From the NCBI GenBank assembly GCA_041661545.1, contig JBAZUH010000001.1, positions 339,877-403,876 on the forward strand: a DNA stretch of 64,000 nucleotides, written 5' to 3'. The stretch is from Candidatus Staskawiczbacteria bacterium. GTDB taxonomy: Bacteria > Patescibacteriota > Minisyncoccia > Minisyncoccales > Staskawiczbacteraceae. Shown piece after piece: positions 33,695 through 55,150 of the stretch. Within the stretch, counting starts at the first letter, position 1; every line of letters begins with the position of its first letter. The notes below the pieces were generated by a model that did no database searches, was not told where the DNA came from, and saw only the letters and a list, made by a program, of their open reading frames with translations. Both the position numbers and the translations under genes were made by a program.

Positions 33695-33729
33695 TTTCGC
33701 GACGGCAAAGTAAATTTATTCCGTCGCTC
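33695..33729 (-). promoter_or_regulatory. GAGCG-hairpin-CGAAAC motif, copy 1 (3' boundary of island A)
   Basis: Minus strand: ttttttttGAGCGACGG-aataaatttactttg-CCGTCGCGAAAC. The stem sequence differs from copies 2 and 3 by compensatory changes. Confidence 0.55.
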
Positions 33730-33780
33730 AAAAAAAAGAAGCGGCCGGTGTGGTCGCTATGCAAAACATGAGAAAGGAGT

Positions 33781-34041
33781 TTAGGCCGGAATCGCCCTAA
33801 TTTCAGCAGCAAATTGTTCGCGAATTTTCGCCACGGCTTCATCAACCGACTCCTCTACGACGCCTGGGAGCGTATATCCTTCACAATCAATCCAATACTC
33901 CCTCCACCAAGAGGCGTGAATCTGTTCGACAAGAGAATTTCGCAATCCAATCGGATTTGACTTCAGTTCTATAAAGAAAACCCGCTTGTGCCTAGCAGAT
34001 AATCTCCTGAATCTCTTCAACAACCATTCTGAAAGCATCAT
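33781..34041 (-). CDS. Island A orphan protein A2 (86 aa), paralog of A1
   Basis: KRVFFIELKSNPIGLRNSL aligns with RRVFLESLSNPSELRNVI of A1. G+C is visibly above the flanks. Confidence 0.55.
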   Translation of the reverse strand: MMLSEWLLKRFRRLSARHKRVFFIELKSNPIGLRNSLVEQIHASWWREYWIDCEGYTLPGVVEESVDEAVAKIREQFAAEIRAIPA

Positions 34042-34071
34042 GGCTCATTTTCTCCTTTCATTATTCGGTTA

Positions 34072-34395
34072 TCACACTTTTTTGCCACGGGGCGTCCTAG
34101 CAGCCGCTTTTATAGAGTCTACAATATCAGTATCCGCCATTTCTTTGGCAAATCGTTTTTTAAGGGCCGAGATCATTTCGGTTGCATCTTCATGGTGATC
34201 GACCTCTCTAATACGCAGACCCGTCTCTTTTGGAAATACTCGTGCCCAAATGCTTAAAGACCCTGTAATTACATTCCTAAGCTCGCTGGGATTAGACAAA
34301 GACTCCAAAAATACACGTCGCGACTCACCTTGTAATCCTTCATATTTATTCACTATCCACACTACGAATCTCGGTTCCAGTGGTTCCCTTTTCAT
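34072..34395 (-). CDS. Island A orphan protein A1 (107 aa)
   Basis: Candidate TTTACA-N17-TAAATT promoter upstream on the minus strand, after the atpC terminator. Paralogous to A2. Confidence 0.55.
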   Translation of the reverse strand: MKREPLEPRFVVWIVNKYEGLQGESRRVFLESLSNPSELRNVITGSLSIWARVFPKETGLRIREVDHHEDATEMISALKKRFAKEMADTDIVDSIKAAARTPRGKKV

Positions 34396-34499
34396 GATTT
34401 TTTATTCTATGTTGACAAGTTGCTGTGTAAATATAATTTACAGCTTTTTTATCTTTTTGTAAAGCAAAAACCGCCTTTGGGCGGTTTTAAAATTTGATT

Positions 34500-34742
34500 C
34501 TATTCTTCAATTATAACCCTGACTTCGTTATCTGGTTTTATTTCCAAAAATCCGGAAGTTATTGGGAAAAACTGCTCCTGTTTATCTTTATCAATAATTT
34601 TAATAATTCCAGCAGACAACACGCTAATTAACGGCTCGTGTTTATCTAATACAGTTATTTCACCCATTATTGTTTGACAATTAAAACTAGAGGCCTCGCC
34701 CTGAAATAAGACATTTTTTAATGAGTAAATTGATAATTTCAT
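34500..34742 (-). CDS. atpC: F1 ATP synthase epsilon subunit (short, N-terminal beta-sandwich only)
   Basis: Position after atpD, plus GEITVLDKHEPLISVL and GFLEI. Confidence 0.8.
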   Translation of the reverse strand: MKLSIYSLKNVLFQGEASSFNCQTIMGEITVLDKHEPLISVLSAGIIKIIDKDKQEQFFPITSGFLEIKPDNEVRVIIEE

Positions 34743-34748
34743 AGTTTA

Positions 34749-34837
34749 GTAACGGGTAATGAGCAATTAGTAACGAGTAATTTTTCTTTTTACCATTTAC
34801 CAATTATTGGTTACCGGTTCCTGGTTACTGGTTACTC
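34749..34837. repeat. GTAAC/GTTAC inverted 12-mer array, copy X1
   Basis: gtaacgggtaat and gtaacgagtaat start 21 nt apart, followed by a T-rich spacer and then inverted ggttaccggtt / ggttactggttactc. Overlaps the atpD stop. Confidence 0.65.
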
Positions 34838-36202
34838 GCCTATTTCGTCGATGCTTCCTTTCAAATAAAAGTTTTCTTCTGGAACTTCATCGTGTTTTCC
34901 TTCTAAAATTTCTGCAAACCCTCTTACTGTGTCTTCAAGTTTGCAAAATTTTCCAGGTCTTCCGGTAAAATTTTCGGCCACAAAAAATGGCTGTGACAAA
35001 AATCTTTGTATTTTTCTTGCTCTGCTAACAATTTTTTTATCTTCATCAGATAATTCTTCAATTCCCAAAATAGCAATAATATCTTGTAAATCTTTATATT
35101 TTTGCAAAGCAGATTGAACTCCACGAGCAACCTCATAATGCTTTTCGCCAACTATTTTTGGGTCTAAAGCTGTTGATGTTGAAGCCAATGGGTCAACTGC
35201 CGGATAAATTCCTATTTCTGTTAAGGCACGTGACAACACAATTGTTGAATCTAAGTGAGAAAATGTTGTAGCTGGAGCTGGGTCTGTAATATCGTCGGCA
35301 GGCACATAAATTGCCTGCACAGAGGTGATTGAACCATTTTTAGTACTGGTAATCCTTTCTTGCAATTCGGCCATTTCTGAGGCCAATGTAGGCTGATAAC
35401 CCACGGCCGAAGGCATACGCCCCAACAATGTTGAAACTTCAGAGCCTGCTTGAGAAAATCTAAAAATATTATCAATAAAAAGTAAAACATTTTTCTTTTC
35501 TTCGTCTCTAAAATATTCGGCCATTGTTAAAGCACTTAAAGCAACCCTAGCACGGGCTCCAGGCACCTCATTCATTTGTCCAAAAACTAATGCTGTTTTA
35601 TTTATAACTCCAGATTCTGTCATTTCTCTGTATAAATCATTTCCTTCTCTAGTTCTTTCTCCCACGCCAGCAAAAATGGAAGCTCCGCCACTTTCTTCAG
35701 CTACGTTTCTAATTAATTCTTGCAAGAAAACTGTTTTTCCTACACCAGCTCCCCCAAACAAACCAATTTTTCCTCCTTTAATAAATGGAGCAATCAAATC
35801 AACTACTTTAATTCCTGTTTCAAAAACTTCTGTTTTTGTAGCTTGATCAACAAATGATGGCGGATCTCTATGAATTGGCCAGTGCTTCTTAAACTTTTTG
35901 TCAGTTTTATTCAAAGGCTCTCCAATAACATTAAATAAGTTTCCCAAAACTTCTTGCCCAACCGGCACTTCCACTTGCCTACCCAAATCTTCAACTTCTT
36001 GGCCTCTTTGCAAACCATCTGTTGAATGTAAAGAAATAGCTTTAACTTTTGTTAAATCTAAGTGTTTTACAACTTCCAAAATAACGTCTCCATTGGGACC
36101 TTTTATTTTTAAGGCTGTATAAATTGATGGCAAATTTACACCTTCTTCAAATTCTACATCGACCACCGGACCAATTATTTGTATTATTTTACCTTTTTGC
36201 AT
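34832..36202 (-). CDS. atpD: F1 ATP synthase beta subunit
   Basis: Walker [10 protein letters not shown], and [14 protein letters not shown]. Confidence 0.95.
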
Positions 36203-36238
36203 AATATTATTTTTTTATTTTTGATTTTTAAAATTATA

Positions 36239-54391: not shown

Positions 54392-54476
54392 ATTATAAAA
54401 AAACTAGACCTTTCGCGGCCCAAGCTCTAATAAACTTGTTTATTGTATATATTAATTATATCAAATTTATTTCACT

Positions 54477-54507
54477 TTGTCAATATGTTCTTCTACCTTG
54501 ATATAAT
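54477..54507 (+). promoter_or_regulatory. Promoter of island F (TTGTCA with extended -10 TGaTATAAT)
   Basis: TTGTCA at 54477-54482 and TGATATAAT at 54499-54507. The spacer is 19 nt, so function would rest on the extended -10. Confidence 0.45.
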
Positions 54508-54619
54508 TATTAATCAATGATAGAAATAATTTAGTATAGTAGGAACAGGATTCCTTGCTATTGAAATTTCGCCGAAAGCGAAACAACTTTGTTGCCAAAC
54601 TACCAACTAATCGAACACC

Positions 54620-54805
54620 ATGAAAACCACAGAAATACCGCCGCCACAATTGGGTATCCCCGTTTCTAAAGCCGCAGAGAAAAAAATGAAAGTAACAATG
54701 CGTCGATGGACGCGTACCAATGTACGAGAAATGGGAAATGCATTCGACCCAAAAAAAACGGCTTCGGTAAGAGCAACTCCGCAAGAGCTAATTAGCTTCG
54801 AATAG
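54620..54805 (+). CDS. Island F orphan basic protein (61 aa)
   Basis: MKTTEIPPPQLGIPVSKAAEKKMKVTMRRWTRTNVREMG... Has a CA-rich leader, a terminator immediately downstream, and elevated G+C. Confidence 0.45.
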   Translation: MKTTEIPPPQLGIPVSKAAEKKMKVTMRRWTRTNVREMGNAFDPKKTASVRATPQELISFE

Positions 54806-54829
54806 AGCTAAAAAGCTGCAACAGTCTTT

Positions 54830-54861
54830 AACCGCAGGTTTCACCTCGCGGTTCTTTTTTT
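54830..54861 (+). terminator. Intrinsic terminator of island F
   Basis: aaccgcaggtttcacctcgcggtt followed by a T-run. Confidence 0.65.
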
Positions 54862-54896
54862 GAGCGCGTAATATAACTTCATTAAACGCGCGAAAC
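54862..54896 (+). promoter_or_regulatory. GAGCG-hairpin-CGAAAC motif, copy 3
   Basis: tttttttGAGCGCG-taatataacttcattaaa-CGCGCGAAAC. Confidence 0.55.
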
Positions 54897-54948
54897 CTCG
54901 CCGAAGCGGGATGCCCTTTGGACCGCGAAGGCGGGTGCATGTAGTGAT

Positions 54949-54977
54949 TTGACATTTTGGGAATTTTAGGATATAAT
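54949..54977 (+). promoter_or_regulatory. Perfect consensus promoter upstream of the DEAD-box helicase gene
   Basis: TTGACA at 54949-54954, a 17-nt spacer, and TATAAT at 54972-54977. Confidence 0.65.
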
Positions 54978-55150
54978 AAATATACTCTGAGTTGTGAAAT
55001 GGATTAAAAACGATTTATTTAGTTTTTGAGCGAAACGAAGCAAAAATTTTGAGGCATACACGTCGTGTTCTGTCGATAAATTTTTGCAAAGTCGCAGCCG
55101 AAAACGAAACGTAAAGAGTTAAATCTATTTCATAATTCAGAGTATTCAAA

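Follow-up and report, generated by a model that had tools for sequence, protein, structure and literature searches.

What is the short palindromic sequence that stands behind the terminators of small-gene islands in a genome of the Candidate Phyla Radiation (CPR), and how did it come to occupy that position? We addressed this question in a 64,000-nt stretch of Candidatus Staskawiczbacteria bacterium (contig JBAZUH010000001.1, assembly GCA_041661545.1), hereafter the window; coordinates are window positions unless a label is given, and labels such as L096, L102 and L112 denote DNA stretches from other metagenome-assembled genomes (MAGs) used for comparison. An initial annotation of the window had proposed that three island ends share a T-run followed by GAGCG, a stem-loop and CGAAAC, and both the composite and its positions were confirmed. 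The module, a T-run followed by GAGCG-[GC stem/AT loop]-CGCGAAAC, is present in exactly 3 copies, namely A (33694-33731, minus strand), B (38129-38167, plus strand) and F (54860-54896, plus strand), with 7 or 8 Ts directly preceding GAGCG in each. The pattern TTGAGCG-N(0-30)-CGAAAC matched the window 3 times, compared with 0.03 matches expected, and none of 100 dinucleotide shuffles reached 3. Scanning with a covariance model, as the annotation had suggested, was performed on the window with a model built from six copies (the 3 window copies and those in L096, L102 and L112) and recovered A, B and F with 77.8, 67.2 and 62.5 bits, respectively, the next-best match scoring 14 bits even with filters switched off. 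Among Rfam 15 families, only three tRNAs scored above the gathering thresholds in the window, and nothing overlapped A, B or F at E ≤ 10. We class the element as a small palindromic extragenic repeat and tentatively regard it as a mosaic of small palindromic insertion elements lodged behind island terminators, resembling repetitive extragenic palindromic sequences (REP) and their bacterial interspersed mosaic elements (BIME), Rickettsia palindromic elements (RPEs) or miniature inverted-repeat transposable elements (MITEs).

The module proved to represent no more than the 5' half of an element that measures 67 to approximately 210 nt in full. The hairpin recognized initially, H2, consists of a GC clamp of 5-8 bp and an AU-rich, sequence-conserved loop of 15-20 nt, flanked by the U-tract and GA on the 5' side and by GAAAC on the 3' side. 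A second helix, H3, extends from the AAC within GAAAC to a final GGGU(U); its core is CC-GAA-G[small stem-loop]C-GAA-GG, which may be expanded at the apex or internally. The short forms are copies B and F (67-82 nt), the long forms copies A, L096, L102 and L112 (approximately 150-210 nt). In copy B (38123-38196, plus strand), T8 (38123-38130) and GAGCG (38131-38135) lead into the H2 arms GCGCGA (38133-38138) and TCGCGC (38157-38162), GAAAC (38163-38167) and H3 (38165-38196; AACTC.TCC-GAA-GCC ctt GGC-GAA-GGA.GGGTT), and 4 nt separate the end of the copy from the atpA stop codon (38201-38203, minus strand). Copy F (54855-54936, plus strand) is built in the same order from T7 (54855-54861), GAGCG (54862-54866), the H2 arms GCGCGT (54864-54869) and ACGCGC (54886-54891), GAAAC (54892-54896) and H3 (54895-54936; CCTCGCC-GAA-GCGG..CCGC-GAA-GGCGGGT). 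Copy A (33586-33737, minus strand) comprises T8 (33737-33730), GAGCG (33729-33725), the H2 arms GCGACGG (33727-33721) and CCGTCGC (33705-33699) around the loop (33720-33706), GAAAC (33698-33694) and a long-range helix in which ACCCC..CACCATTTTT (33695-33677) pairs with GAAAATGGTG.GGGGT (33601-33586), enclosing the conserved block GACAGCCGTAGGCGCTTCGC (33653-33634). Alignment of the four long forms revealed three conserved parts over approximately 150-210 nt: the module followed by CCCCTTCACCAATTTT, the block GACAGCCGAAGGCGCTTCGC, and GAAATTGGTGTGGGGT, the first and last of which form the long-range helix. Compared with the other long forms, the L102 copy carries a 20-nt insertion, GCCGAAG-[hairpin]-CGAAGGCG, flanked by CGAAG repeats. 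Judged by this shared layout, all six copies are one family composed of a T-tract, GA, H2, GAAAC and an H3 of variable size.

The copies from other genomes were found by a pattern scan over 185,579 genomes, which returned at least 118 stretches; 115 of those listed were chance matches in GC-rich coding DNA, and, among the matches listed, 3 were further homologues, all in other CPR MAGs. The L096 copy lies between gatC and mreB, the L102 copy is located antisense between grpE and hrcA, after a 66-aa open reading frame (ORF), and the L112/L313 copy is beside gap, after a 97-aa orphan ORF convergent with gap. No copy was present in approximately 190 kb of the nearest available relatives (L120-L125, L310-L312 and L317-L322), reached via AtpG (66-75% identity) and the DEAD-box helicase (78-83% identity); the closest relative of the latter protein, P0003, is 85% identical. 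Two scans of viral contigs yielded chance or coding matches only, and a descriptor scan of 2.9 Mb produced no further AT-looped copies. The element is thus dispersed, patchy and non-syntenic. Its local placement is uniform: all six known copies abut a T-tract and are oriented in the sense of the upstream gene, and five follow small orphan ORFs, the upstream ORF of the L096 copy being not clear-cut. The upstream ORFs are unrelated to each other except for the paralogous pair A1/A2 of island A, and A1 and the L112 ORF are orphans among 5.8 billion proteins. The element is 85-90% identical across different MAGs, and its neighbouring ORFs are orphans. Two further repeats were noticed in the MAGs carrying long forms. 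In L096, two occurrences of the 22-nt sequence ATGCGAAyCGGGCTCTTTTTTT (1449-1470 and 1551-1573), spaced by approximately 100 nt, surround a perfect 36-nt palindrome; the T-run before the module comes from the second of them, and no terminator hairpin lies ahead of that run. A second hairpin family, with arms like TTCACCCCCACACCA/TGGTGTGGGGGTGAA, was observed in L102 (2402-2445 and 6031-6135) and L096 (735-805 and approximately 1800-1850), and one such hairpin lies within the long element of L102.

Pairing of the H2 positions was read by hand on the six sequences (alignment A1, three from other MAGs). The innermost pair is G-C in A and L096, A-T in B and T-A in F, with no pairing in L102 and L112; at the fourth position, A has A-T, L096 and L102 have G-C and L112 has an A.G mismatch, and both partners have been deleted in B and F. 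The compensatory stem change with preserved complementarity, originally described from three copies, therefore holds and is stronger than stated, being seen across six copies and including a paired deletion in B and F. The loop, characterized in the annotation as always AT-rich, is indeed so; beyond mere composition, it is conserved in sequence (AATAnAA..TTyCTT). In the model-fitted alignment A4, in which some B and F columns are misplaced, 82.5% of the cells are paired, compared with 20-60% for slid registers, 2 pairs display double changes, and the observed covariation score was reached by 17 of 500 shuffles. For the long form, 96% of the cells are paired against 36-50% in slid registers, with compensatory double changes at two places: H2, and the long helix of copy A, in which A-U is replaced by U-A. 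G.U pairs are found on the sense strand in H3 of B and F and at the final pair of the long helix. Both H2 and this helix are maintained through compensatory changes; the evidence is real but thin, the covariation statistics being modest because the sequences are so few, and the earlier argument from covariation to a selected structure stands to that extent, for a hairpin kept across six copies. A single co-variation between the loop and GAAG was read directly, with UUUAC accompanying GUAG in A compared with UUUUC or CUUC accompanying GAAG elsewhere. A pseudoknot between the H2 loop and GAAG was rejected, since its stability was no better than with shuffled loops, which leaves the one possible covariation unexplained.

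The relationship between the element and the preceding terminator can be assessed from both sides. The initial annotation placed a terminator hairpin before each T-run, which is accurate for B and, with a bulge, for F; in A, the hairpin at this position is weak. Island B ends in a canonical terminator-like site (38103-38122, plus strand; fold GCCACG cacgtt CGTGGC, then TC), in which the hairpin at 38103-38120 is followed by TCTTTTTTTT, and the corresponding site of island F (54830-54854, plus strand) forms a bulged fold at 54830-54853. These H1 hairpins have the features of intrinsic terminators, canonical in B and bulged in F. H2, evaluated in the same way, does not, having a loop of 15-20 nt, compared with 3-8 nt in such terminators, and GAAAC rather than a U-tract behind it. 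In copy A, a second terminator-like hairpin lies just past the module (33689-33671, then TTTTTT). Here, the 5' strand of the long-range helix can pair locally (TCACCA..TGGTGA, 33671-33689, minus strand), a possible alternative terminator structure in copy A only.

The GG(C/T)TC sequence before the T-run is a property of the island terminator family, not of the element, and the island terminators of the clade share GG(C/T)TC-T7/8 followed by G. The site between the glycosyltransferase and DEAD-box helicase genes is syntenic in L322, L319 and the window, and both flanking promoters align. In L322 the site is empty, with 27 nt between the anchors, and in L319 it holds a different two-ORF island, the terminator region of which (9915-9965) is homologous to window 54810-54860 (36/50 identical without gaps; score 44 versus 13.8 ± 3.0 for shuffles, z of about 10). 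After CTCTTTATT, however, the L319 sequence goes straight into the DEAD-box promoter TTTGACA, and the window has approximately 90 extra nt, at about 54857-54946, where copy F resides. Similarly, the atpA-atpG island of L124 ends in ...GGGCTTCTTTTTT / ...GTACCGGGCTTCTTTTTT right on the atpA stop codon, the window having a 74-nt element between the equivalent T-tract and that codon. Comparison with these homologous (L319) and analogous (L124) terminators, which lack the element, indicates that the element is separable from the island terminator. The slot can also hold other palindromes. A different one, of 85 nt, occupies 61141-61240, behind the GCGGCTC-T7 of an island at 60-61 kb, and the orthologous slot of L322 contains T7-G, 30 AT-rich nt, AAAAC and then an H3-like helix without the GC clamp, AAAAC-AACCCTTCCGAAGC..GAAGGGTT, that is, AACCCTTC-CGAAGC..-GAAGGGTT. 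A nearly perfect palindrome, ..GTCGCGTTTTTGACGG/CCGTCAAAAACGCGAC.., is common to 53195-53253 and 61153-61211, the latter filling the post-terminator slot.

The H3 unit is found outside the element as well. A GC-rich mini-palindrome of 27 nt, CTCGCCGAAGC-TTTA-GCGGAGGCGGG(T), is located at 39558-39584 (plus strand), antisense inside atpA (38201-39754, minus strand), and 23 of 24 bases are identical to the flanks of H3 in copy F. It encodes the in-frame 9-aa sequence GEPASAKAS, an insert that is absent from AtpA of L120 and L124. A near-identical short H3 form, CCCGTCCGAAGCTTTAGCGAAGGAGGGCGGG, lies on the 5' side of the L121 island. The H3 unit has thus been copied independently, even in frame into atpA, and its presence in both non-coding and coding DNA, as with RPEs, points to spread at the DNA level. 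This behaviour was observed for the H3 unit only and not for H2. The copies do lie at the 3' ends of small-ORF islands, but with islands lacking the motif in L319 and L124, other palindromes in the slot and H3 within atpA, the idea that the motif marks cassette ends does not hold as an obligatory rule.

The islands themselves are accessory to conserved surroundings. Island B, which consists of a promoter, three small ORFs and a terminator, is inserted antisense between atpA and atpG in the ATP synthase operon, which is on the minus strand of the window; island A, with the two paralogous small ORFs A1 and A2, follows atpC; and island F contains one 61-aa ORF between the glycosyltransferase and DEAD-box helicase genes. 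By contrast, the atp operon of L120 is compact, with genes that overlap and without islands. Several islands are antisense inside, or convergent to, essential operons, and all are dispersed singly, without arrays. A Pfam scan of 40 window ORFs revealed no recombinase or transposase, and the island ORFs have no match in Pfam or PHROGs; a search for homology among the island ORFs related only A1 and A2 to each other. The island B promoter is sigma-70-like (11/12) and, at 37422-37451, matches L121 at approximately 352-381 (minus strand) in 26 of 30 positions. Islands at orthologous sites thus retain a homologous promoter (B and L121) or terminator (F and L319) around unrelated small ORFs, which suggests that small genes may be replaced between conserved island boundaries.

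Several other features were observed around these loci. Within the atp operon, two 7-nt-periodic arrays lie just upstream of atpG and atpC (37337-37413 and 34746-34836, read on the minus strand), each with (GTAAnnn) x4-7, an A-rich spacer and (TTACnnn) x5, forming a long imperfect palindrome. A GC-rich structured repeat of approximately 110 nt, carrying CCCGCGAAGCGGG and GCCGAAGCC motifs, is present at 36239-36350, between atpG and atpD, and at 10758-10870, beside a superoxide dismutase gene, the two copies being 96% identical over 84 nt. In L121, the atpG match (457-1805) extends over 1349 nt and two ORFs (543-794 and 828-1808) for a 320-aa protein, suggesting an insertion or frameshift. Two genes, at 49447-50763 and 52432-52998, have G+C contents of 58% and 52%, compared with approximately 32% for the genome; the former has a weak AP_endonuc_2/xylose-isomerase-like match, and a gene of the AP_endonuc_2 family is found at the matching position in the contig of the closest relative. 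At 1-5300 and 9550-10240, tandem units of approximately 1.6 kb at the left end of the window and coding repeats of 63-69 nt inside the gene for an 891-aa NosD/beta-helix protein were observed.

A hairpin-less version of the motif had been noted in the leader of the DEAD-box gene. The sequence TTTTTGAGCGAAAC is indeed present there (55023-55036, plus strand), but with 2 matches at ≤1 mismatch against 0.39 expected it is only weakly above chance, and the covariance model does not detect it; it is possibly a degenerate copy that lost its hairpin between two GCG repeats, an uncertain relationship. The leader, of approximately 160 nt (54980-55150), extends between a perfect 12/12 promoter and the ATG and contains GAGCGAAAC and the inverted repeat GCAAAAATTT/AAATTTTTGC, whereas the DEAD-box genes of four relatives lack this leader (TATAAT-agaaca-ATG). 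We did not call the leader a MITE because the 9-bp repeat at its ends (ATACTCTGA/TCAGAGTAT) is about what chance gives.

How, then, is the element best explained? The interpretation to which we lean, though it falls somewhat short of an even chance, is that palindromic elements spread at the DNA level and persist right behind the T-tracts of terminators closing small accessory-gene islands, perhaps because insertion there does little harm. The route of spread is one that we infer only, since the analysis revealed neither an enzyme nor terminal inverted repeats nor target duplications; candidates are an enzyme supplied in trans, or insertion on single-stranded DNA that is templated or mediated by hairpins. 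After insertion, the added GC-clamped hairpins would affect read-through RNA, serving as a back-up terminator, as an insulator or to protect the 3' end, and the benefit might be stronger termination or insulation of the essential operons that hold antisense islands. Several points weigh against this interpretation. Only six copies are known, terminal inverted repeats and target-site duplications are absent, and the window has no transposase or recombinase. Copies B and F, whose loops have diverged, are old paralogues that did not arise by recent transposition, and instead of an insertion in the window, L319 could have undergone a deletion at the site where the two differ. Moreover, the sense orientation (6/6), the position behind small orphan ORFs (5/6) rather than behind housekeeping terminators, the conserved loop sequence and the sense-strand G.U pairs fit a structured RNA at least as well. 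Such a functional sense-strand RNA would be either a 3'-untranslated or read-through element acting with the terminator, as an insulator, 3'-end stabiliser or processing site, or, for the long form, a small RNA of no known class or a fold resembling a ribozyme. We consider this possible but rather unlikely. Such an RNA would account for the compensatory changes in H2 and the long helix, for the conservation of the H2 loop and the block GACAGCCGAAGGCGCTTCGC across four genomes, for the constant orientation of all six copies and for the small orphan ORF ahead of at least five of them; in addition, tandem sheared G.A pairs formed by the UGA...GAAA flanks could lengthen H2, and the strongest terminator-like hairpin of copy A lies past H2, so that H2 would be transcribed. 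The lone loop/GAAG co-variation points the same way, but that pairing is no more stable than with shuffled loops. An RNA function is also difficult to reconcile with the lack of an Rfam match at E ≤ 10, the location behind a terminator T-tract without a promoter of its own, the short forms lacking most of the long form, the absence from approximately 190 kb of the nearest relatives and the H3 unit antisense inside atpA, where an RNA role is implausible.

The position of the element at the extreme end of inserted islands raises the prospect of a DNA site for the exchange of small-gene cassettes, either an attC-like folded hairpin or a portable homology arm used in homologous or homology-facilitated recombination once DNA has been taken up, which we regard as doubtful. 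Orthologous-site islands with homologous boundaries (26/30 in the promoter, 36/50 in the terminator) and unrelated ORFs would fit such exchange, as would an element 85-90% identical between MAGs next to orphan ORFs, and conserved flanks around a variable hairpin resemble attC logic. However, the window encodes no integrase or other recombinase, the attC R''/R' core sites are not present, the islands have their own promoters and form no arrays, the element is found at one end only, and the islands of L319 and L124 have the same type of terminator without it. A broader version, to which we assign little probability, combines the element with the conserved promoter and terminator of the islands into the fixed frame of a CPR cassette-exchange system; H2-H3 would provide the anchor for recombination or homology, being recognised in single-stranded form after natural transformation, and unrelated small genes would be swapped between constant boundaries at hot spots inside essential operons (atpA-atpG, glycosyltransferase-DEAD-box and hrcA-grpE), an integron-like logic without an integron integrase. 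Equally improbable in our estimation is that the element is part of the termination signal, as a tandem or cluster-of-hairpins terminator or a U-tract-edge sequence, with the likeness among copies due to shared island ancestry. The terminator sequence common to the islands of the clade would be in keeping with this, sequences flanking the U-tract matter for termination (bioRxiv 10.64898/2026.05.29.728758), and clusters of hairpins have been proposed to induce it (PMC8355165). Yet TC-U8-GA is unlike the reported GC(U)7RU motif, and neither the loop conservation nor the 150 conserved nt of the long form would be explained. As a pure terminator the element fails, because H2 has no U-tract behind it and relatives terminate with homologous terminators that lack it.

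Other candidates were rejected. A promoter, with TTGAGC as the -35 and a -10 in the loop, considered on both strands, has spacing and hexamers that fit only 1-2 copies, and an extracytoplasmic function sigma factor promoter with the -35 GAAAC-N16-CGT lacks a -10 partner. The kink-turn is excluded by a C-stem that cannot form. Hammerhead, group II and other ribozymes have no Rfam match and missing core bases; GA-[stem]-GAAAC recalls the hammerhead core (CUGANGA, stem II, GAAA, and stem III with a cleavage triplet), but the 5' box UUUUUGA is without C3, G5 and A6. The bubble-edge motif GC(U)7RU does not match TC-U8-GA, and GCTCTTT, which might be read as lambda nut/boxA, is the terminator arm and is present in empty sites too.

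Very little is known about the repeats and mobile DNA of the tiny CPR genomes. In this locus, islands of small genes occur at recurrent hot spots inside essential operons, with boundaries (the promoter and the GGCTC-T7 terminator) that are conserved while the genes would be replaced, and the slot behind the terminator collects small GC-clamped palindromes, one unit of which has been copied in frame into atpA. The island hot spots, their conserved boundaries and the atpA insertion hold no less interest than the motif. If mobile, the element would offer a handle on DNA movement in organisms without obvious transposases; if an RNA or a recombination site, it would represent a new family. In practical terms, elements of this kind can lead astray gene calling, terminator prediction and the search for structured RNAs in CPR genomes.

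Among known systems, the REP/BIME of enterobacteria and the BOX elements of pneumococci are short extragenic imperfect palindromes located after gene 3' ends, variably composed mosaics of a few hairpin modules with conserved flanks that have been proposed to stabilise or terminate transcripts. The element resembles them in being palindromic, in its extragenic position after genes, in its mosaic of hairpin modules and in its conserved flanks, and differs from both in the long, AT-rich, sequence-conserved loop of H2 and in that every copy abuts a T-tract. REP/BIME are further recognized by an imperfect palindrome of 20-40 nt, a GTAG-like tetranucleotide at the 5' end, hundreds of copies and a gene for a REP-associated tyrosine transposase (RAYT, TnpA-REP); the element is present at 3 copies per 64 kb, has no GTAG-type tetranucleotide at its 5' end, and is not accompanied by a RAYT gene in the window. 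The attC sites of integrons likewise stand at the 3' end of gene cassettes, with conserved ends and structure around a variable centre and with extrahelical positions. The element shares the location, the conserved ends, the variable centre and asymmetric positions at the stem base. Unlike attC, it is optional, and no RYYYAAC/GTTRRRY cores are found: the 5' end reads TTTTGAGCG, and at the 3' end CGCGAAAC precedes H3; GCGAAAC departs from RYYYAAC in its third base, and GTTRRRY does not occur. No intI or attI is in view, no integrase was detected among the 40 ORFs, and cassettes come singly, without arrays, and with promoters, as in island B.

Palindrome-associated transposable elements (PATEs), derived from IS200/IS605, have neither terminal inverted repeats nor target duplications, carry similar subterminal hairpins at both ends, depend on a Y1 transposase in the genome and always integrate in one orientation, 3' of a particular tetra- or pentanucleotide. 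The element is similar in lacking both features, in having a hairpin near each end and in its fixed orientation 3' of the T-tract (6/6), but H2 and H3 are dissimilar, the distances from hairpin foot to end differ, and no Y1 transposase is known for the genome, with none among the 40 window ORFs scanned. Group IIC introns typically occur in one orientation directly behind terminator motifs, that is, an inverted repeat plus Ts (PMC1702495). The element shares the location behind a terminator, and its 5' GAGCG agrees with the GUGYG consensus in 4 of 5 positions; however, at 67-210 nt against >600 nt it is far shorter, it contains no domain V/VI and no reverse transcriptase ORF, and no group II intron was matched in Rfam at E ≤ 10. 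RPEs are small palindromes that occur in both non-coding and coding regions of a reduced, AT-rich genome, with lengths of 100-150 nt and hundreds of copies (PMC1166351). The H3 unit is like them in adding 9 in-frame residues to AtpA, and differs in its length (26-40 nt), in the single coding insertion seen and in the absence of sequence similarity, with H2 never seen in coding sequence. Collectively, these comparisons suggest that the element would work most like REP/BIME or BOX mosaics and RPEs.

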